Positions 1,611 through 18,086 of a stretch of 26,656 nucleotides of DNA are shown one piece after another; position 1 is the stretch's first letter, and each line of letters starts with the position of its first letter. The stretch lies in the NCBI GenBank assembly GCA_038217285.1, contig JBBQPO010000051.1:1-26656 (forward strand), in the 5' to 3' direction. The DNA comes from Chthonomonadales bacterium. GTDB taxonomy: Bacteria; Armatimonadota; Chthonomonadetes; Chthonomonadales; Chthonomonadaceae. The notes below the pieces were generated by a model. It was not told the origin of the DNA. It made no database searches and saw only the letters and a program-made list of their open reading frames with translations. The position numbers and the translations under genes are program-made.

Positions 1611-3181
1611 CTAGCAGTCTGTCGGAGAGACTCGTCAGATATTCTCTCCACCCCTGAAAAGCCTGTGTTTGTTCAGGCTGGTCGGCTGATCCATTCCTCG
1701 GAGTTTCCGCAAAACGTCGCGAAACGTCCGAAAGGATCGAAAAAAACCCTCTTGCGGACCTATCCCGACCACTTTAAGCGTTCGACAAGACGTGCAAGCG
1801 CCGCAGGTTGTACGCCAAGCACACCAGAAACCATTCGCCCGCCGCAGACGCCAGACCCCGTAAGGAGAATTGCCGGAAACCCAACACCTCCTTGATCTGA
1901 CCGAACATGGGCTCAATCGTGCATTTACGACGCCGATAGATCGCCTTGCCAAGCGCGGTGCGCAACTTGTAAGCCATCTTCTCCCGCGGCGTCGCTCCTT
2001 CCGGAGGAGCGGGACCTGCCTCTGCAAAGTAGGCTTCCCAGCCTCCGGAGTGATCCGCCCGTCCGGTGGCAATGTAGGCTTCAATGGCGCGTGCTTCCAA
2101 GGTGGAGAGAGTGGCGGAACCGAAGAAGCCGCAGTCCAGAGCCGCCGCCTTCGGAGAACCGAGTTCTTCGGGAATGCTGTCGAGAGTGGGAGCGGCCTCC
2201 TGTTGGTCGTTGGCATGGTTGGAAAGGGAGGCACCCACGATGAAAAGCGCCTCTTGATCCACAGCAGCCTGGACATTGTAGTGTTGGTCGAAACCGTCGT
2301 CACGACTGTTTTTCATGATCCGGCTCTGGGGATCGGTGAAGTTGTACTGATCTTTGTCGCGTGGTCCTGGCGTAGGAGGAGCAGGCAGTTTCTTGCCGGT
2401 GTGCTTCTCCTGGTCGTCACGGGAACGCATCTTGGCTTCGTACTCGGCTTGTTCGAGGATCGTACGCTCAGCGGCGCGGGCTTCCAACACCGTTCTCGCC
2501 TCGGCCATACGTGCCAGACGGTCTTTGCGCCGGGTGATCTCCTTGGGCAGATCCATGCCTTCGGGCAAGGCACTCTTATCGGCTTGCTCGGCGAGGAGGA
2601 AGAGTTGTCGGACTTCCTCTGCCAACTTGGCTTCGATCTCTTTTAGGCGTTTGTAGGAGACGGCCTTGCTCTTGGAGGCATCGGCATGGATCTTGCTTCC
2701 ATCGAGGCTGATGTTACCGACCTTGAGTAAGCCCATCTCCTGAGCCAGGAGAAGGATCTGGACAAAGATGTTCTGGAGTTGGGGAAGGAAGGTCTTGCGG
2801 AAGTTGGCGATGGTGTCGTGATCGGGAGTGAGATTGCCTGCCAGGAAGCGGTAGGGAACGTTGTCTTTGCAGGCTTGCTCGATCTTTCTGGAGGAGAAAA
2901 CGCCGTTGGCATAGGCGTAGACCAGGAGCGCGAGAAGGACTTCGGGAGCATAGGGAGCTGCTCCTCGCTTTGCATAGTGCGCATAGAAAGCCGCGAGGTC
3001 CAGATCCTCGACGACATCGGCGATGAAACGGGCGAGATGATCTTGGGGAAGACAATCGCCCAATCGGACGGTCGTTTCGAGAGCCTCTTGATAGTTAACG
3101 GTGATGAATTGTCTGCTCATGCTCATAAGTGTGGCATATTCAAGGACGGGGAGAGATGCCGTCTCTCCGACAAACTGCTAG
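1611..3181 (-). mobile_element. IS1182-family insertion sequence including CTAG flanks
   Basis: Terminal inverted repeats CTAGCAGTCTGTCGGAGAGAC (1611-1631) and GTCTCTCCGACAAACTGCTAG (3161-3181), 20/21 match. CTAG at both ends is a likely target duplication. Encloses a transposase. Confidence 0.9.
1774..3126 (-). CDS. IS1182-family DDE transposase
   Basis: 450 aa. LPQDHLARFI, YAYANGVFSSRKIE, PDHDTIANFR, DGSKIHADAS, NFTDPQSRIM, YNVQ, YRRRKCTIEPMFGQIK..LGFRQFSLRG motifs. Confidence 0.93.
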   Translation of the reverse strand: MSMSRQFITVNYQEALETTVRLGDCLPQDHLARFIADVVEDLDLAAFYAHYAKRGAAPYAPEVLLALLVYAYANGVFSSRKIEQACKDNVPYRFLAGNLTPDHDTIANFRKTFLPQLQNIFVQILLLAQEMGLLKVGNISLDGSKIHADASKSKAVSYKRLKEIEAKLAEEVRQLFLLAEQADKSALPEGMDLPKEITRRKDRLARMAEARTVLEARAAERTILEQAEYEAKMRSRDDQEKHTGKKLPAPPTPGPRDKDQYNFTDPQSRIMKNSRDDGFDQHYNVQAAVDQEALFIVGASLSNHANDQQEAAPTLDSIPEELGSPKAAALDCGFFGSATLSTLEARAIEAYIATGRADHSGGWEAYFAEAGPAPPEGATPREKMAYKLRTALGKAIYRRRKCTIEPMFGQIKEVLGFRQFSLRGLASAAGEWFLVCLAYNLRRLHVLSNA

Positions 3182-6421: not shown

Positions 6422-7117
6422 CTAACTCAGGCGGCAGATGGGGCAGATTCGGTAAGGCGTTTTGTGGAGGGAGTCGCAGCGAGGACAGACCTTCCAGTGG
6501 TGTTCCAGACGCCAGTGACGCAGGCGGGCTTCGAGGGTAATGCGGCGGGCGATACTCTCCCGAGCGTGTTCGTCCGTGATCGAAAAGAGAGCTTCCAGGC
6601 TGGCGCGAAGACGCTCTCGCTCGTGAGGTTCCAGAACCAGCGCGGCGAGCTCTTCATCGGTCGGGTTGTCCGGGTCGGCAGGCGGTTCCGGCGGCGCAAT
6701 GCCCTGCGCCCGGAAGATGATCTCGGTGATGACCTGCGCGCCGAGCAGGCGATTGAGGCCCAGCAGCAGGCGCGCCTTGTGCAGCATCAGCTCGTGGGAC
6801 CAGACGGAGCTTTTGGTGCGCACGAACAGCACGCCGTCGCGCACCGACTCGGCCTGCGTCGCGGCAGCGGCCTGCGCACCTACCACACGCGGCCAGTAGG
6901 CCAGCGCCAGGCTCTCCCGAATCTGGGTGGCGCTGTCCATGCGGTTGATGGCGTTCGCGAGCGCCGCCGCGATGGGACTGTTGCGCAGGGCGGGCGGCGT
7001 GGACTCACTCCGCGCTTCCGACGACGCTTTCCGGCTCTGCCAGGTCGGCCGCTTCTCCGAGCTTCGGTTCCGATCGGGGGAGGGTGGATTTTGAGGATCG
7101 GGGTCTTCGACTGACAT
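6422..7117 (-). CDS. dciA: DUF721/DciA family protein with C-terminal Zn ribbon (start uncertain)
   Basis: WPRVVG...A.....VRDGVLFV.T.SSVWSHEL...K..LL..LN is the DUF721 pattern; CPRC...CPIC at the C-terminus; typical position after recF. Confidence 0.8.
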   Translation of the reverse strand: MSVEDPDPQNPPSPDRNRSSEKRPTWQSRKASSEARSESTPPALRNSPIAAALANAINRMDSATQIRESLALAYWPRVVGAQAAAATQAESVRDGVLFVRTKSSVWSHELMLHKARLLLGLNRLLGAQVITEIIFRAQGIAPPEPPADPDNPTDEELAALVLEPHERERLRASLEALFSITDEHARESIARRITLEARLRHWRLEHHWKVCPRCDSLHKTPYRICPICRLS

Positions 7118-8366
7118 CAGGTGTTACCGTTCCGGCAAGGACCCGAAAGGTCGTCGCCTCGTCCAGGATCTCCTTCGGGAAGGAGCGTAAATTGGTGCAG
7201 GTCAGAAAGGTCTGGCCGCGACGGCGCACCCAGCTCAGAAGGTGCTTACGGCGGGCATCGTCCAGATCGCTCATCACATCGTCGAGCAGCATCACCGGCG
7301 GCTCCCCCACATAGTCCTCGATAAGCTGAAACTCGGCCAGTTTCAACGCCAGAACGACCGTTCGCTGCTGCCCCTGCGAGCCGTAGATACGGGCATCGGC
7401 GCCGTTGATGAGAAAAATCAGGTCGTCACGCTGCGGACCAAGCAGTGTCGTGCCTCTACGGGCCTCATCCAGACCTACCCCCCCTAAGGCCCGGCGAAAA
7501 GCATTTGCAATCGCCTCCGTGGCGCTGAGGGGCGATTCCGGACGAGTCTGCGGCAGAGTCGGTGTCTCGGACTCCGCGCTGGCCTGCGCTTCCGCCAGAT
7601 ATTGGTCTTCCGCCGAAGATTCCCGCAGCCTATCGGGCTCTCCGCACCGGGGCAGCGCAATGCTCGGCAGATAGCGCACTTCCAGACCCTCTTTGCCATC
7701 GGTCAATTCGCGATGAATCTGATCGGCCAACGGCGCCAGTCGCTCGATGTAGAAACGGCGCTTTTCGAACAGGGGCGCGCCGAACTGGATCAACTGCTGG
7801 TTCCAGACGTCCAGGCCGACCTCGTCCGGAGGCCGCGGCCGCTCCCGCAGCTCCCGCAGGAGACGATTCCGCTGCTCCAGCACCCGCTTGTAGTGGCCCA
7901 GGTCGTAGACGTATCGCGGGCTGATCTGAGAGATCTCCACGTTCAGATAGTGCCGCCGCGTGGAAGGCTCGCCCGTCACGATCGGCATGTCTAGGGAGCC
8001 GAAGAACACCGCATTGAACTGTCCCAGAATATCGACGACGCGGCTGCGTTTCAGGCCGTTGACCCTAACCGCCTTTTTGTCGCTCTGAAAGACCGATACC
8101 TGAATCTCGGCATCGCCCTCCCGCTCTCGCGAAACCTCCGCCGTCACATGGGCCATCTCCGATTCGCGAAAAATCATCTCCGATTCGCGACCGGCCCGGA
8201 AGGAGCGCGTGGTCGCCAGCAGGGAGAGGGCTTCCAGCACATTGCTCTTGCCCTGGGCGTTCGGCCCATGCAGAATATTCAGACCCTCTCCCGGCGTCAG
8301 ATCCAGCGTGGTGTAGTTCCGAAATCCACTCAGTTTCAGTTGGCAGACACGCATGACGCTTACCAC
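7005..8366 (-). CDS. recF: DNA replication/repair protein RecF (start 8366 GTG or 8354 ATG)
   Basis: FRNY, Walker A GPNAQGKSN, SFR, GPQRDD, signature GSQGQQR, Walker B LLDDVMSDLD. Confidence 0.97.
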   Translation of the reverse strand: MVSVMRVCQLKLSGFRNYTTLDLTPGEGLNILHGPNAQGKSNVLEALSLLATTRSFRAGRESEMIFRESEMAHVTAEVSREREGDAEIQVSVFQSDKKAVRVNGLKRSRVVDILGQFNAVFFGSLDMPIVTGEPSTRRHYLNVEISQISPRYVYDLGHYKRVLEQRNRLLRELRERPRPPDEVGLDVWNQQLIQFGAPLFEKRRFYIERLAPLADQIHRELTDGKEGLEVRYLPSIALPRCGEPDRLRESSAEDQYLAEAQASAESETPTLPQTRPESPLSATEAIANAFRRALGGVGLDEARRGTTLLGPQRDDLIFLINGADARIYGSQGQQRTVVLALKLAEFQLIEDYVGEPPVMLLDDVMSDLDDARRKHLLSWVRRRGQTFLTCTNLRSFPKEILDEATTFRVLAGTVTPDVSRRPRSSKSTLPRSEPKLGEAADLAEPESVVGSAE

Positions 8367-8414
8367 GCTCCGTTTCTCGTCGCACTCGGTTCTTCCAGGC
8401 TGTCAAAACAGAGA

Positions 8415-9075
8415 AGTTATTAACAAGTTATCAACAATACCAACAGAACGAACAGGCGATTCGAGATCTCTTCCGAGTACCACTTGGATTCTACGTTCGA
8501 TCCCGTTTCCCGGTTCAAATCGATTCTTCCCTCGCCCGCATCTCTTCCGTTCCCCATTCGGAATCCAGGGAACTATTCCAGAATTTCAAGAGTCATTTCC
8601 CAGAGCCCCTATGAATCAAGAATCAGTTATCTATGATCTATATAAGAGTCTGTGCTTATGATTAAGCGGTGAATAAGACTCATAACTAGGGGGATAGTAG
8701 ACGGGCGAATCGTATTTTTCAAACGATAGAATCAAATCGTTCTGCGACTCTGATAGATTCTGCTAGTTACCGATAACGCAATTGAGTCTACATCCGTCTC
8801 AACTACTAGGGGGATAGTTATTAACAATGGGCCGTCTTCGCTGTTAATAACTCGACTCATAACTGCCCACTTACTAACAGAGAACTGTTGACAGATTCGT
8901 TGACAGGCAGTTATGAGTCCCGCTGTTAATAACTTCGCCCCGACTCGGTTGAAACTGTTAATAACTATCCCCCTAGTAGCAATCCGCCCTTCGGGAAGTG
9001 CATGTTTAAAGCGTTAAACATGCACTTGTTCGCCCTTCGAATCGCCTTCCCTACTCCGCCTCTCTGTTAATAACT
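8415..9075. repeat. Non-canonical DnaA-box-like repeat AGTTATTAACA, 6 exact copies
   Basis: TTATTAACA core at 8417(+), 8818(+), 8842(-), 8924(-), 8956(-), 9065(-). One-mismatch variants TTATCAACA 8428 and TTACTAACA 8871. Confidence 0.85.
8996..9027. repeat. Perfect 14-bp hairpin downstream of dnaA (terminator or protein-binding palindrome)
   Basis: AAGTGCATGTTTAA-agcg-TTAAACATGCACTT. Confidence 0.7.
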
Positions 9076-9110
9076 TCCTCCTGGCACTGTATAACTTTGC
9101 GACTCAGAGT

Positions 9111-10652
9111 TTAACCCATCAGACTCTTAATCAACTGATTCACCAGAGCTTTCAGGCCGGGATCGGCCTGGAGCAGGGTGCGGATTCGCTGGCAGGCGTA
9201 GACGATGGTGGCATGGTCTCGTCCGCCGAATGCCGCTCCCGTGATGGAGGTGTTGAGCTCCGGCATAAGCTCACGACAGAGGTGCATGGCGACATGGCGC
9301 GCCAGAGCGATATCCTTATGGCGGCCCGGCCCCTTGATCTGCACGGAGGTCGTCTGAAACTGCTCCGCGACGGCGTCCACGATCTCATCGATGGTAACCT
9401 TTCGCACCCGGATCGGCTTGCCTATGAAGTACTCGCTCAGCACACCCTGCGCGACCTCCTGCGTGGGCGACTGGTTCATGATTGAACAGGAGGCAATCAG
9501 GCGCGTCAGAGCGCCTTCCAGCGTCCTCATATTGGACTGGATGGCATCGGCGATATAGAGCAGTACATCGTCAGGGACATCCACCCCTTCCCGTTCGCGG
9601 CATTTCTGAAGGAACGCGATGCGGGTTTCCAACTCCGGCGGACTGATATCGGCGATCAGGCCGCTCTGGAAGCGGGATCGAAGGCGTTCGTCCATTGTAT
9701 TCAGTTCACGCGGACTGCGGTCGCTGGCGAGCACGATCTGCTTCCCCGTCTGATAGAGCGCGCTGAAGGTGTGGAAGAACTCCTCTTTGGTCTGCTCTTT
9801 ACCGGCGATGAACTGAATATCGTCTACCAGCCAGACATCCACCGCGCGATGCTGACGGCGGAACTCTTCGATGACTTTCGCCCCGAGCGACGAGACATAG
9901 TGCTGCGTGAAATACTCGCCGGAGACGTAGGCGATTCGCATCTTGGGATGTCGGCGGCGGATGTCGTGGGCAATCGACTGCAGCAGATGTGTTTTCCCGA
10001 GGCCAGGGCCGCCGTAGAGAAACAGCGGATTGTAGACGTCGCCGGGCCGCTCGGCGACGGCGCTCGCGCTTGCGAAGGCAAGACGATTCGAGCGTCCGCC
10101 GCCTAAAAAGTTCTCGAAGAGGAAGCGGCCGTTCAGCGGCATGCAGGGGATTTCGGGCAGGTCGGCGCCGCGTCTGCCTTCGGTCTTGCGAGAGTTGGAT
10201 TTCGGGGTGGGGCGCGGCTGCACCGAAGGCGTCTGCAGGGGCGTTTCGGCGCGGGCCGCCACATGGGGAGGGTCTGCCTCCTCATCGGCTTCGGTATCGA
10301 GGGGCAGGGCCGTCTGAACCGAAGCGGTCGCCGACGCCTTGCGCGAACTCTCCGCCTGCTGTTCACGGGAGGAGACGACCAACTGGACCTGGAGGCCGGT
10401 GGTATCGAGGTGGAACTCCAGCGCACTGCGAATAGCGTTCAGGTGATTGTGTTCCAGGCGGTCCCGAGCGAACGCACTGCTGACTCCGAGGGTGACGACA
10501 TTGCCTTCGTAGGTCAGTGGCTGTATCGGCACGATGAAGCCCTGGAACATGGACGTGCTGACTTTGGAGGCAAGAAGATGCAGCGACAGCTTCCACGCGA
10601 TTCGGAGCGTGGCCGAGCGGTCTTCCTCTCCGAATTCGAGCTGTCCGCTCAC
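9111..10652 (-). CDS. dnaA: Chromosomal replication initiator DnaA
   Basis: YNPLFLYGGPGLGKTHL, DDIQFIAGK, EEFFHTF, SDR, RLRSRF, SNMRTLEGAL, FGGRDH; all four domains present. Confidence 0.97.
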   Translation of the reverse strand: MSGQLEFGEEDRSATLRIAWKLSLHLLASKVSTSMFQGFIVPIQPLTYEGNVVTLGVSSAFARDRLEHNHLNAIRSALEFHLDTTGLQVQLVVSSREQQAESSRKASATASVQTALPLDTEADEEADPPHVAARAETPLQTPSVQPRPTPKSNSRKTEGRRGADLPEIPCMPLNGRFLFENFLGGGRSNRLAFASASAVAERPGDVYNPLFLYGGPGLGKTHLLQSIAHDIRRRHPKMRIAYVSGEYFTQHYVSSLGAKVIEEFRRQHRAVDVWLVDDIQFIAGKEQTKEEFFHTFSALYQTGKQIVLASDRSPRELNTMDERLRSRFQSGLIADISPPELETRIAFLQKCREREGVDVPDDVLLYIADAIQSNMRTLEGALTRLIASCSIMNQSPTQEVAQGVLSEYFIGKPIRVRKVTIDEIVDAVAEQFQTTSVQIKGPGRHKDIALARHVAMHLCRELMPELNTSITGAAFGGRDHATIVYACQRIRTLLQADPGLKALVNQLIKSLMG

Positions 10653-10783: not shown

Positions 10784-10965
10784 GGGCGATTCAGGCTCCC
10801 TAACGCGGCCGCCTTGAAGATTTTTTGTTCGCATCAGGCCGTCTTGAGCAGGAGTTCCCCTCGGCTGCCGCGAACCACAGAAGAGTGTCGTACAGATGTC
10901 TTAAGCGAACTGCAAAGTGGCGGCGTCTGCCGGAAACGGCGGCTCAAAAAAGGAGAAAAGATTCC

Positions 10966-11580
10966 ATGTCCCTGCATCATAATCGTATCGTATTGGTCGT
11001 CGGATGGGGCGGAGTGCCTATGTTGGCAGGCCTGACGGCCCTGCTGTTGGCGGGCGCTCCGGTCGGTACCCGAGCGGAGGAAGCGCTTCCGAACGCGGCG
11101 GTGTCCACCGATGTGTTTGCGCGCGTCGTGCCGCTGACACTCGCCGCCACGGAGCGACGGGGCGGCCAGCTCGGGCCGCTGGACCTGATCCCCAAACCCT
11201 TCCCGCTTCATCTGCGGCTGGGAGCGATGCTCTCGCCGCGCACCAAGTTCGACGGCGGCATCGACGTGACGCTGGGACGCGGGATACTGCCGAGCTCTAC
11301 CACGCGCATCGATGCGGATGCGATCCTCTCCGCCAACTTCCGCGGTATCTCGACCCTGGTGCCGATCACATTGGACCAGATCTACTCCAAAGGACTGCTT
11401 GGCGGCAATCGTCTCTACTTCGGGGCGGGCCTCGGCCCGTACATCGCGGAGAGGACGCGTTTCGGGGGCAAACTGTTTATTGGCGCGGACCTCGCGGTCC
11501 GGATCGGGGTCGAGGGCGCGGTCCACTTCTCGGGCACCGGCAGTCCTCTGCTGACACTGCAGGCGCGCGTCGGACTGTAG
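10966..11580 (+). CDS. Hypothetical secreted protein, small outer-membrane beta-barrel-like
   Basis: AGGAGA RBS then ATG 10966; signal peptide-like N-terminus; alternating strands (LYFGAGLGPY, IGVEGAVHF, LTLQARVGL). Confidence 0.6.
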   Translation: MSLHHNRIVLVVGWGGVPMLAGLTALLLAGAPVGTRAEEALPNAAVSTDVFARVVPLTLAATERRGGQLGPLDLIPKPFPLHLRLGAMLSPRTKFDGGIDVTLGRGILPSSTTRIDADAILSANFRGISTLVPITLDQIYSKGLLGGNRLYFGAGLGPYIAERTRFGGKLFIGADLAVRIGVEGAVHFSGTGSPLLTLQARVGL

Positions 11581-11596
11581 TATGCCATATCGGCGA

Positions 11597-11645
11597 TGAA
11601 GCCAACACGACGTAGGGATCTGGTCCCTGCGTCGTGTTGGCTTCA
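11597..11645. terminator. Long hairpin between convergent genes (bidirectional terminator or REP-like)
   Basis: 22-bp arms TGAAGCCAACACGACGTAGGGA / TCCCTGCGTCGTGTTGGCTTCA with one G-U pair. Confidence 0.65.
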
Positions 11646-11682
11646 AGTTGTTTGCGCAGGGCGACTCTGCGTTAAGGCCGGG

Positions 11683-12054
11683 CTACTTGTTGTCTTTGTC
11701 GCCGCGATCTTTGAAGAAGAAGCTGATCACGCCGCTGAGGAGGCCCATCGCAACCGAGCCGATGAGGGCGGGCAGCGCCCCGTCCACACGATAGCCTGGC
11801 ACCACACCGCTCCCTGCCACCCAGAAGAACAGGATGTTCAATGCAAAACCCAGCAGCCCAAACGTCAGACAGTTGATAGGCCACGCGAAGAACATGATGA
11901 TAGGACGAAGGACGGCATTGGCGAGCGCCAGCCCGACGACGACAATCACCAGCGACAGATAGTTATGCCCATCGAAATGAATGCCAGGCACGAACATTGT
12001 CACCGCAAACAGAGCCGCGATGTTGGCGATCCAGCGCACAATCCAGTTTTTCAC
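11683..12054 (-). CDS. YvlD-like 4-TM membrane protein (phage holin superfamily IV)
   Basis: 123 aa; NAVLRPI....WPINCLTFGL..FALN pattern. Confidence 0.85.
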   Translation of the reverse strand: MKNWIVRWIANIAALFAVTMFVPGIHFDGHNYLSLVIVVVGLALANAVLRPIIMFFAWPINCLTFGLLGFALNILFFWVAGSGVVPGYRVDGALPALIGSVAMGLLSGVISFFFKDRGDKDNK

Positions 12055-12953
12055 CGCTTGATTCCTCCAGCGTTTTCAGGGGCCAACGGCGCTCTTCCGG
12101 AAGACGCGTGTAACACGAAATGCTCGACAGCCCGCGCGACGCCGTCCTCCCGGTAGCCGGAGGTCACATAGTCGGCGGCCGCGCTCACCTCGGGCAGGGC
12201 ATTGCCCATCGCCACGCCGACCCCGGCCCAGCGCAGCATCTCGATATCGTTCAGATGGTCGCCGACGGCCATCGTCTCCTCCTGCCGTACACCTAGATGC
12301 TTTGCTATGTACTCGACTCCGACCTGCTTGCTGACCCCCGGCACATAGATCTCGATGCCCCAGTTCAGTTCCGAACCCGACTGCACGACACTGACAGCCC
12401 CAGCAAGGTGCGTTCGCAGTTTTTCTACCAGGGGGCGCATGCGCTCTGGAGGGCCAAAGGCGCTGACGGAGACGGGCTCGAAGGGCAGTTCCTCCAGAAT
12501 GCGGGCGTAGGGCCGGTAACGCGGTATATCGGCCCACCGGCCCACCGTCATCTCCGGATGATAGAGCACTCGCGCACCTTCAAGGCCCGGCCTATCCGAG
12601 TCCTCGAAAACATAGGGCTCCGAACCGACCGCGACGATGGCGCGCACCACCTCCAGCGCCAGCGGGATCGGCATCAGATTGCGATAGAGGATCTCGCCGC
12701 GACCGGCGTGGGCCGCCACGCTCCCATTGGAGGCCACCAGGTAGCCATACGGCTCGCCCAGCGATTCGAGCACGGGCTGGGCGCGAAACCGAGTACGACC
12801 CGTGCAGAGAACGACATGACAGCCCTGCGCCTGTGCCGCTGCCAGCGCCACCGCCACGCCGGGCGAAACAGCCTCTTCCATTCCGACGAGCGTACCGTCT
12901 ATATCCAGAAACAGTGCGCGTATCTGCGGTGCGTGGGGGACTTGCTTTTCCAT
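12051..12953 (-). CDS. Cof-type HAD-IIB hydrolase
   Basis: [37 protein letters not shown] motifs. Confidence 0.93.
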
Positions 12954-16766: not shown

Positions 16767-16932
16767 AAATCCACCTTTCGATATGCAGGATATATCTTAA
16801 CAGTTGTGCTGTCCTGCTGGTATTTTGTGCGCCAACCAACCCTGGGGTCGGTCAGGGAAGCTGCGTACCTCTTTGATGACGAATGATCGCACACCGGGCG
16901 TAATTAGAGAATGATCTCCAAAATATTACTCT

Positions 16933-16948
16933 TGCACATTCCGTGCCA
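16933..16948 (-). promoter_or_regulatory. Sigma-54 (-24/-12) promoter for the PEP-CTERM gene
   Basis: Minus strand TGGCACG-GAAT-GTGCA versus consensus TGGCACG-N4-TTGCW; correct GG-N10-GC spacing and orientation. Confidence 0.75.
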
Positions 16949-17360
16949 AATCGCCTTGTGTCTCAGGATACCAGACAATTTTTTTCAAATCCCCTCAGAA
17001 AGTCGGTCTGTTGAAGGGAAAAGCAGCCCTAGAAGCGCAGCCGAAAAGTCGATTTTCTGTGAAAACCGTCAAAATGGCGGTGTCATATTTCCCGTGAAAG
17101 TGAGATTTGACGCTTCTACAAGCATCCTGGAGCCATGAGTTTTTGATCGTTTGCTGGCTAAAGGACTTTTCGGCCACGCTTCTAGCGAAAATACTGGTGA
17201 GTAAGAACGCCCCGCAACCCCGTTATGACGATTCTATTCGGGCAGGCCGAAGCGCCGTTCAGAAATCCGACTGTATATCCCAGAGTTTCGGCAAGGGTGA
17301 CTCCCGGACGCAGCAAGCATAGAGCCTGCGTGATTCGGCCAGAGTCATTGTTCAGGGATT

Positions 17361-18086
17361 CTACTTGGGATTGGTGGAGGGAATAGACGGCGGAGGCTTG
17401 ACCTCCTTATAATCGGTCGGGGGTGTCCAGACAAAGATACTATCTGGGATGTTGATATTCATCAGTTGGTCGTTTGCCGACTGTATCAGGGTGCCGTTTG
17501 CGGTCACAATCGTCAGTTTCAAGAACTGAGAGTTCTGTTTGTCGATTATAATGGTGACCTTAGCGTTCGCGCGTTCGGTTGGTACGCCTTTGGTCGGCAT
17601 GTCTGGTTTTAAGACAAAGGTGGCGCGGCCCTTCACGGTCGTTTCCGGTAACAATAAGAAACCATTTACAGGATTCAGTACCGCGAAAAATCGCGAAAGC
17701 ATATTTTCGTTTGGAATCTGCCCGCGCTGGTAGGCTTTCTCTGACCGGGAGTACATGAACAGCGATTTGCCATCGGTAACCATAGTCTTATCGGACGACT
17801 TGCTTCTCCCACTAATGGTAGCTGAGGTGACATTGTTCACGACGTACTTGTTCGGGGCCTTGAACCAGATCTTGATCGTTACGGTCTGCGTCCCTCGCTT
17901 GCCGTCGGGCCTCGTGCCTTTTTCAACACGCACGATGGTTCCTTGAAAGGATTTCGCATTAGCATAGATGTCGGTCATTTTCTTGTAAACGTCGCTGGCA
18001 GACTGCGCGCGGGCAGAGGACAGCGCAAAAATGCCGAAAACCACAGCCAGAACTACAGCACAGTAATTGACAGGCTTCTCTTTCAT
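17361..18086 (-). CDS. LolA-like / DUF2092 periplasmic protein (start uncertain, ORF extends to 18125)
   Basis: Signal peptide (ARA), KAPNK, VTDGKSLFMY, IDK, IPDSIFVWTPP patterns of LolA-fold proteins. Confidence 0.75.
   Translation of the reverse strand: MKEKPVNYCAVVLAVVFGIFALSSARAQSASDVYKKMTDIYANAKSFQGTIVRVEKGTRPDGKRGTQTVTIKIWFKAPNKYVVNNVTSATISGRSKSSDKTMVTDGKSLFMYSRSEKAYQRGQIPNENMLSRFFAVLNPVNGFLLLPETTVKGRATFVLKPDMPTKGVPTERANAKVTIIIDKQNSQFLKLTIVTANGTLIQSANDQLMNINIPDSIFVWTPPTDYKEVKPPPSIPSTNPK

Follow-up and report, generated by a model that had tools for sequence, protein, structure and literature searches.

A GANTC-dense predicted replication origin and a solitary CcrM-type methyltransferase in Chthonomonadaceae (Armatimonadota)

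Why should the spacer between dnaA and recF of an uncultured bacterium be packed with the target word of a methyltransferase from another phylum? The oriC of E. coli is enriched in GATC, with 11 sites in 245 bp, and is under control by Dam and SeqA. GANTC is the target of the m6A methyltransferase CcrM in Alphaproteobacteria; the Caulobacter origin carries about five GANTC sites, and the word also occurs at the ccrM promoter. To our knowledge, CcrM has been seen as characteristic of cell-cycle control in Alphaproteobacteria, and methylation-based sequestration of origins as particular to Gammaproteobacteria. Here we describe a stretch of 26,656 nucleotides (the window) from a soil or sediment member of Chthonomonadaceae (Armatimonadota), in which the dnaA-recF spacer is packed with CcrM-type targets, suggesting that this mark times replication there too. 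The window is contig C51 of a genome assembly of 6,210,036 bases in 459 contigs (95% complete), all of which was scanned.

The GANTC cluster and its setting

A sequence-only reading of this DNA had listed 20 GANTC sites within 648 bp and two more, at 9122 and 9137, in the 3' end of dnaA, had noted that all four middle bases occur, and had counted about five sites in another spacer (16767-17361). A pattern search of the whole window verified every listed start, added a further site at 9183 in the dnaA 3' end, and counted five in the comparison spacer. The middle bases of the 20 sites divide into six A, five T, five C and four G, and their flanks share no common longer word. Across the window as a whole GANTC is not enriched (120 sites against 136 expected from shuffles), so the excess in the dnaA-recF spacer is local.

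The genome-wide sliding-window density that the same reading had proposed to check bears this out. Over 118,476 frames of 650 bp, GANTC averages 1.9 per frame (sd 1.43) and reaches its maximum of 20 in the dnaA-recF spacer, which is the densest such frame of the 6.2-Mb genome. The runner-up, with 12, falls in a CRISPR array on contig C73 that has GAATC in each repeat; this array (L205 1-1450) comprises 19-20 repeats of about 37 nt with one GAATC apiece, a case of the single repeated word from which the sequence-only reading had set the origin cluster apart. Dinucleotide-preserving shuffles of the spacer (n = 2000) contain 4.48 ± 1.99 sites and at most 11. Among all 136 word classes of the form XXNXX, GANTC ranks first in the spacer (z 7.9 against dinucleotide shuffles), followed by TANCA (z 4.1), TANTA (z 3.5) and ATNAC (within 3.5-4.1), all three of which owe their excess to the repeated DnaA-box word that contains them. 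When counts are divided by the genome-wide rate, TANTA stands higher (20-fold, 10 sites, versus 9.2-fold, 20 sites, for GANTC), because the spacer is locally A+T-rich. The density of GANTC in the spacer is 31 per kb, and helical phasing of the sites within this one origin is weak (p 0.04 to 0.11).

Genome-wide, GANTC occurs at 2.94 per kb against about 3.6 expected from base composition (a hand calculation), a rate near enough to expectation to argue against restriction-type avoidance of the word. A comparison of intergenic with coding DNA (2.93 against 3.09 per kb) is uninformative, as the stop-to-stop mask of open reading frames covers 97.5% of this G+C-rich genome. Two smaller groups of sites lie elsewhere in the window: five GANTC in 89 bp at 7534-7622, inside the recF coding region, the first three 10 and 12 bp apart, and five in 132 bp at 17230-17361, at one end of the 16767-17360 spacer and among the six richest ORF-free stretches genome-wide.

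By its flanking genes, DnaA boxes, base composition and relatives, we take the dnaA-recF spacer to be the chromosomal replication origin (Table 1), as the sequence-only reading had suggested. Leftward from the spacer the order is recF, a DciA-family gene and comEC, and no dnaN lies between dnaA and recF. Scored against TTATNCACA, which we take as the DnaA-box consensus, the spacer holds eight box-like 9-mers with at most one mismatch, the densest such cluster of the genome (eight in 750 bp; next best four), and all six genomic copies of the 10-mer GTTATTAACA lie within it. It is this pairing of DnaA and RecF flanks with the only dense box cluster of the genome that leads us to the assignment. 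The GC content of the spacer is 0.44, compared with about 0.6 around it. In a relative with a main contig of 4.86 Mb (G084), twenty 20-kb samples gave a mean GC skew of -0.015 on the side predicted to lie left of the origin or past the terminus and +0.017 on the right (one-sided Mann-Whitney p 0.006); the samples are coarse and singly noisy, and would place a sign switch no more closely than between about 0.92 and 1.25 Mb, with dnaA at 0.96 Mb. Across a sampled 400 kb of that genome no 650-bp frame exceeds seven GANTC, versus 22 at the origin.

Other elements were seen in passing. The copies of ACTAGGGGGATAG usually stand beside a DnaA box and may be a candidate site for an origin factor. A perfect 12-bp inverted repeat with a 4-nt loop lies at 8998-9025, about 90 bp past the dnaA stop; it has no T run and is partly conserved in relatives. 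A DDE transposase gene (DUF772, DDE_Tnp_1) occupies 1774-3126, 4 kb from the origin-side gene block.

Table 1. Features of the predicted origin and its flanking genes (window coordinates)
Feature	Position	Strand	Basis
Predicted chromosomal origin, the non-coding DNA from the dnaA stop to the recF start	8355..9110		Flanks, DnaA boxes, GC, conservation
Cluster of 20 GANTC, predicted CcrM targets	8458..9105		Count, genome scan, shuffles
Conserved core of seven GANTC (8646, 8677, 8707, 8729, 8746, 8756, 8784), spacing 31-30-22-17-10-28	8646..8788		Alignment
Two DnaA-box-like 9-mers (8417, 8428)	8417..8436		At most one mismatch to TTATNCACA
DnaA-box-like 9-mer abutting the GANTC at 8677	8668..8676		Sequence reading, box scan
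Two DnaA-box-like 9-mers (8818, 8842), copies of GTTATTAACA	8818..8850		Box scan
Two DnaA-box-like 9-mers (8924, 8956)	8924..8964		Box scan
DnaA-box-like 9-mer	9065..9073		Box scan
13-nt motif ACTAGGGGGATAG, copy 1	8685..8697	+	Three genomic copies, all in spacer; conserved in relatives
13-nt motif ACTAGGGGGATAG, copy 2	8805..8817	+	Genome word count
13-nt motif ACTAGGGGGATAG, copy 3, inverted	8965..8977	-	Genome word count
A+T-rich stretch beside box 8668, candidate unwinding element	8626..8667		Read from sequence; adjoining block is the best conserved of the alignment
dnaA, last 30 codons with GANTC at 9122 and 9137	9111..10652	-	TIGR00362, 439 bits, above cut-off
recF, with ATG 8354 taken as its start in place of the listed GTG 8366	7005..8354	-	TIGR00611, 315 bits
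dciA-like gene downstream of recF	6422..7117	-	PF05258 (DciA), 58 bits

A solitary CcrM orthologue and the array upstream of its gene

The reading had also supposed that this organism, with gene content that did not look alphaproteobacterial, might possess an orphan GANTC methyltransferase. Both suppositions stood: by the relatives of its DnaA the organism belongs to Armatimonadota (Chthonomonadaceae), and the genome encodes one solitary, full-length CcrM orthologue. The N6_N4_Mtase family has nine matches in the genome. The top-scoring protein, of 403 amino acids, is encoded on contig C164 and aligns over residues 35-385 with chain 6pbd_A of Caulobacter CcrM, at 447 bits (E 5.7e-133). It matches PF01555 with 237.8 bits, carries a DPPY motif in the context FADPPYNL, and keeps the C-terminal domain (PF18755, RAMA, 49.2 bits, residues 297-381). 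Its score against the NCBIfam CcrM equivalog NF050803 is 541.7 bits, below the cut-off of 830, and from sequence it is best described as an orthologue-like relative of CcrM that falls outside the curated alphaproteobacterial equivalog. At E 1e-80 it is the one CcrM-type match in the genome.

The neighbours of ccrM are pth (peptidyl-tRNA hydrolase), an ECF sigma gene and a 151-aa open reading frame with no Pfam match; none of these neighbours has a nuclease domain, and a distant nuclease gene is possible. With no adjacent nuclease and no genome-wide avoidance of GANTC, we therefore regard the protein as a solitary CcrM orthologue. Its full-length similarity to a solved enzyme predicts that it methylates the adenine of GANTC, and we consider it very likely that the GANTC sites of this genome are methylated by it.

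A second group of sites lies at the methyltransferase gene itself. When ORF-free stretches of the genome are ranked by GANTC content, the origin and the CRISPR array are followed by 223 bp upstream of ccrM, with six sites. Five of these stand at -113, -101, -91, -81 and -71 from the start codon (spacing 10-10-10-12 bp; contig C164:4270-4355, L001 2383-2468), and with the sixth all fall within 71-142 bp upstream. This is the only run in the genome of at least four GANTC at 9-12 bp. Six other runs, of three sites at this spacing, were set aside: they lie mostly in long open reading frames and are no commoner than those of words of like abundance. Along the strand of ccrM the units of the array have the form GAMTCA, and the five bases between them vary.

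Phasing of this kind, with GAMTCA units, recurs in most of the family. We compared 800 bp at ccrM from 20 other genomes: ten Chthonomonadaceae, five Capsulimonadaceae, three members of family f2 and two of f16. Runs of three to six GANTC at 10-12 bp are present in 7 of the 10 Chthonomonadaceae, two of the seven belonging to the genus of the window, and an eighth has in-phase pairs; the remaining two (G054 and G070) have no phased run, nor do any of the Capsulimonadaceae, f2 or f16 upstream regions (0/5, 0/3 and 0/2). The ECF sigma gene divergent from ccrM was considered as a partner and rejected, being kept only in two same-genus genomes among the 20 upstream regions. The directionality of GAMTCA, together with a longer word at Capsulimonadaceae origins (below), hints at a sequence-specific protein.

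Sites and enzyme across Armatimonadota

Orthologous spacers, a comparison that the sequence-only reading had proposed, share the enrichment. We examined 48 loci with relatives of the window's DnaA (the closest 81-90% identical). Their records are titled Chthonomonadaceae, Chthonomonadales, Capsulimonadaceae or other Armatimonadota, apart from an Acidaminococcales and one under the title Janthinobacterium. In 27 of them a 650-bp frame holds 13-38 GANTC, the frame nearly always starting at the dnaA end, and 16 more hold 8-12, including L024, which ends 33 bases past dnaA. The remaining five are L022 and L025, which end less than 400 bases after dnaA, the Acidaminococcales locus (L035), L014 and L056. 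All 27 cluster loci come from genomes with a CcrM match at E < 1e-100.

When 11 Chthonomonadaceae spacers are aligned, each GANTC from 8646 to 8784, and the one at 8915, recurs in 7 to 10 of the 10 other sequences, the outer sites being less conserved (0-5 of 10). At 8646, 8746 and 8756 the middle base varies and GA..TC is kept, and the spacing string of the core recurs in relatives. When the 711 sites of 40 related origins are pooled, a weak W on each side is all that their flanks share, and the gaps between neighbouring sites peak at 10-11 (111), 21 (27) and 30-31 bp (34), counts that overstate the phasing because the loci are kin. At Capsulimonadaceae origins, which in relatives of Capsulimonas hold up to 38 sites, most sites are embedded in the longer word TGTGASTC, at 10-16 per locus compared with 0-1 in Chthonomonadaceae. 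One Capsulimonas-type origin (L036 5600-5900) has about 34 GANTC in 400 bp, many of them as TGTGACTC, and no canonical DnaA box was seen in it on reading. Another locus (L018, genome G009) has 86 GANTC over 9.4 kb, at 8.4 per kb outside its densest frame.

An origin-type cluster of at least 12 GANTC is found in 18 of 21 Chthonomonadaceae genomes (assigned by record title or family label), the window's included, and such origins occur in Capsulimonadaceae too. The origin DNA of a relative, used as a query against five genomes, matched its core in G054 and G047 and had no match in G070, G202 or G005. The two matched cores contain 13 and 15 GANTC and lie away from dnaA: in G054 (L199, C1) the core is directly upstream of recF, and in G047 (L200, C26) dnaA is away from it. 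The array thus goes with the origin and not with dnaA.

To relate sites to enzyme, we surveyed 401 Armatimonadota genomes at a match threshold of E 1e-80. CcrM is matched in 134, including 30 of 31 Chthonomonadaceae, 20 of 21 in f2 and 27 of 29 Capsulimonadaceae (f29). No match at this threshold occurs in f6 (27 genomes), f11 (47) or f14 (23), and f8, f17 and f25 have a shorter form that lacks the C-terminal domain. In one case (G017/G354:C1:40811-42865) the CcrM match falls into two parts, which cover residues 22-148 and 142-383 and are separated by about 950 bp within one open frame of 778 amino acids, an arrangement that points to an inserted domain or element.

We then counted sites around dnaA, with 3 kb on each side, at 140 loci from 139 genomes, five further places being left out. 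Of these, 56 come from genomes outside Capsulimonadaceae that have a full-length CcrM match, 25 from genomes with the short form and 59 from genomes classed as having none; among the last, one proved to have a contig-cut ccrM fragment and one a short form. A frame of at least 13 GANTC occurs at 2 of the 140 (22 and 23 sites), both Chthonomonadaceae with CcrM, and at none of the 59 (maximum 12) or of the 25 (maximum 9). The remaining 54 of the 56 full-length loci have no dnaA-adjacent cluster; in family f2, two genomes carry 12-14 DnaA boxes next to dnaA and only 3-4 GANTC there. CcrM-positive sister families with no dnaA-adjacent cluster indicate that the enzyme alone does not entail one. The proposed co-occurrence of methyltransferase and GANTC-rich spacers holds in that clusters were seen only alongside full-length CcrM, and fails in the reverse direction.

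Individual losses point the same way. In G005 ccrM is a pseudogene, with fragments in two frames with stops and the N-terminal half gone; canonical DnaA boxes and the core persist in its dnaA-recF spacer, where about 480 bp contain 4 GANTC. In G202 (98% complete) a search at E 1e-5 still finds no CcrM, and the spacer, 220 bp long, retains the core and a single GANTC. A Capsulimonadaceae genome (G223, complete) has neither a CcrM orthologue nor a cluster beside dnaA. The sites are lost where the enzyme is lost, in two or three cases among genomes that are kin. G070, a complete Chthonomonadaceae genome of 3.44 Mb, encodes a CcrM-like protein with 54% identity and has no cluster at dnaA, at recF or among those of its close GANTC triples that were listed, the genome-wide number of such triples being 35 versus 111 for a reversed control word; its enzyme may serve another role.

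Candidate mechanism, rival readings and known systems

We propose that the predicted origin is under methylation-dependent control by CcrM acting at the GANTC array, a reading that we hold to be reasonably likely on the combined evidence of sites, enzyme and relatives. The steps are modelled as they are because origin control by Dam and SeqA in E. coli (PMC13076061) and methylation by CcrM in Caulobacter (PMC3973325) are established. CcrM would methylate the array; passage of the fork would leave the whole of it hemimethylated; this state, read by some protein or directly by DnaA, would block re-firing of the new origins; and CcrM would then restore full methylation and permit the next initiation. 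A second layer may operate through the array upstream of ccrM, five to six GANTC one helical turn apart, where the enzyme's own mark would feed back and probably set its expression. The available part of PMC13076061 summarises the mechanism of Dam/SeqA origin sequestration in E. coli, and that of PMC3973325 describes, for Caulobacter, a gradient of hemimethylation from origin to terminus in which near-origin sites are hemimethylated in most cells.

What might read the mark? SeqA (PF03925) has no match at E 0.01 in the 95%-complete genome, in a search whose positive control in E. coli matched. GcrA was not found either; the sole hit in the genome scores 23.2 bits (cut-off 26.9) and was dismissed as the helix-turn-helix of region 4 of an ECF sigma factor. 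The genome has no second RAMA-domain protein besides CcrM itself. The open reading frames upstream of dnaA (10825-12156) were rejected as readers, having no Pfam match and looking secreted or membrane-bound. That a dedicated new reader exists is possible, and we hold the idea only tentatively. We are similarly hesitant about a fuller version that would cover two Armatimonadota families, in which CcrM-marked GANTC arrays on one face of the helix would be read by a protein other than SeqA and GcrA, or by DnaA, and new origins and ccrM would both stay silent until remethylation.

Alternative readings differ in how much of this they would dispense with. That the cluster is a product of chance, base composition or repeats of one word draws on a spacer that is A+T-richer than its surroundings and does hold repeats, and is nonetheless next to negligible: none of 2000 shuffles, nor of a further 1000, reaches 20, the sites are not copies of a single word, and they are kept across genomes whose DnaA proteins are 53-65% identical. 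A more substantial proposal is that GANTC forms the core of a binding site for an origin protein indifferent to methylation, CcrM merely sharing the word. The directional GAMTCA units upstream of ccrM with their 10-bp spacing, the longer TGTGASTC of Capsulimonadaceae and the pooled gap peaks, which fit a protein array on one face of the DNA, would all suit it. Yet the Chthonomonadaceae sites have all four middle bases, mixed flanks and a drifting middle base, clusters occur only in genomes with CcrM, and where ccrM has been lost the sites have eroded and the origin core has not. We consider this explanation quite improbable.

DnaA as the sensor would retain the methylation and need no dedicated reader: m6A in GANTC sites that abut or lie inside box-like words would alter DnaA binding or duplex opening directly. 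The GANTC at 8677 touches the box at 8668, and GACTCATAAC (TTATGAGTC on the other strand), with three of its seven genomic copies in the spacer, aligns with TTATCAACA/TTATCCACC boxes of relatives, four of which have TTTTGAGTC words where the window has TTATTAACA. Further, TGTGASTC of Capsulimonadaceae shares TGTG with the complement of the box, L036 shows no canonical box on reading, and none of the reader homologues sought (SeqA, GcrA, a second RAMA protein) was found. Against these points, four of the eight positions that the box consensus specifies are different in TTATGAGTC, the majority of the 20 sites have no box beside them, and the array upstream of ccrM has no DnaA box. Direct sensing by DnaA is thus an unlikely account, if less so than a methylation-independent binding site, and we retain methylation-dependent origin control by CcrM as our preferred reading.

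Our data join a CcrM-type enzyme to a predicted origin as dense in sites as that of E. coli, in a phylum that has received little study, and natural losses tie the sites to the enzyme. A full-text search found nothing on GANTC in Armatimonadetes or on CcrM in Armatimonad*, subscription journals lying outside its scope. The available part of Gonzalez et al. 2014 (PMC3973325) reports that homologues of CcrM carrying the C-terminal domain occur in Alphaproteobacteria, in Helicobacter and in some Chloroflexi, and the searchable text of its supplement (one file excepted) contains no Chthonomonas, Armatimonad or Fimbriimonas. The main text of Blow et al. 2016 (PMC4752239) has no mention of Armatimonad or Chthonomonas; in its available part, a presence-absence argument supports origin clusters of motifs for four orphan methylases, namely GATC in Gammaproteobacteria, TTAA in Arthrobacter, CTCGAG in Nocardia and CTAG/CATG in Haloarchaea. 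A putative methylation-marked origin with a CcrM-type enzyme in Armatimonadota, lacking the readers known elsewhere, is new within this literature, and the GANTC-origin system is probably family-wide, with its own feedback array at ccrM. The locus offers a concrete place to seek a reader of methylated adenine other than SeqA, and suggests that methylation-timed replication may have arisen repeatedly from different parts. Should the one-face reader be real, origin sequestration would have been invented independently here, and m6A readers would gain a new class.

The nearest precedents each match in part. The clusters in the available part of Blow et al. 2016 (PMC4752239) likewise place a motif between dnaA and the next replication gene, with an enzyme correlated across relatives, but GANTC appears there only for Alphaproteobacteria and not at origins. 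Methylases of M.HinfI-type restriction-modification systems share the predicted target word and the catalytic fold, whereas here no nuclease gene is adjacent, GANTC is not avoided, and the gene is conserved across the family. With E. coli oriC and Dam/SeqA the likeness lies in an orphan N6-adenine methyltransferase and in the crowding of its short palindromic target at the origin, beside the DnaA boxes, at a GATC density of the same order as the 31 per kb seen here; the differences are a beta-class CcrM, another word, another phylum and the lack of a SeqA homologue, and sequestration is, for our organism, a prediction. Caulobacter provides the closest counterpart, an orthologous enzyme with the C-terminal domain and GANTC in both the origin and the region upstream of ccrM, whereas the system described here differs in its denser origin array, the absence of GcrA, its place in Armatimonadota and the array phased at 10 bp upstream of ccrM.
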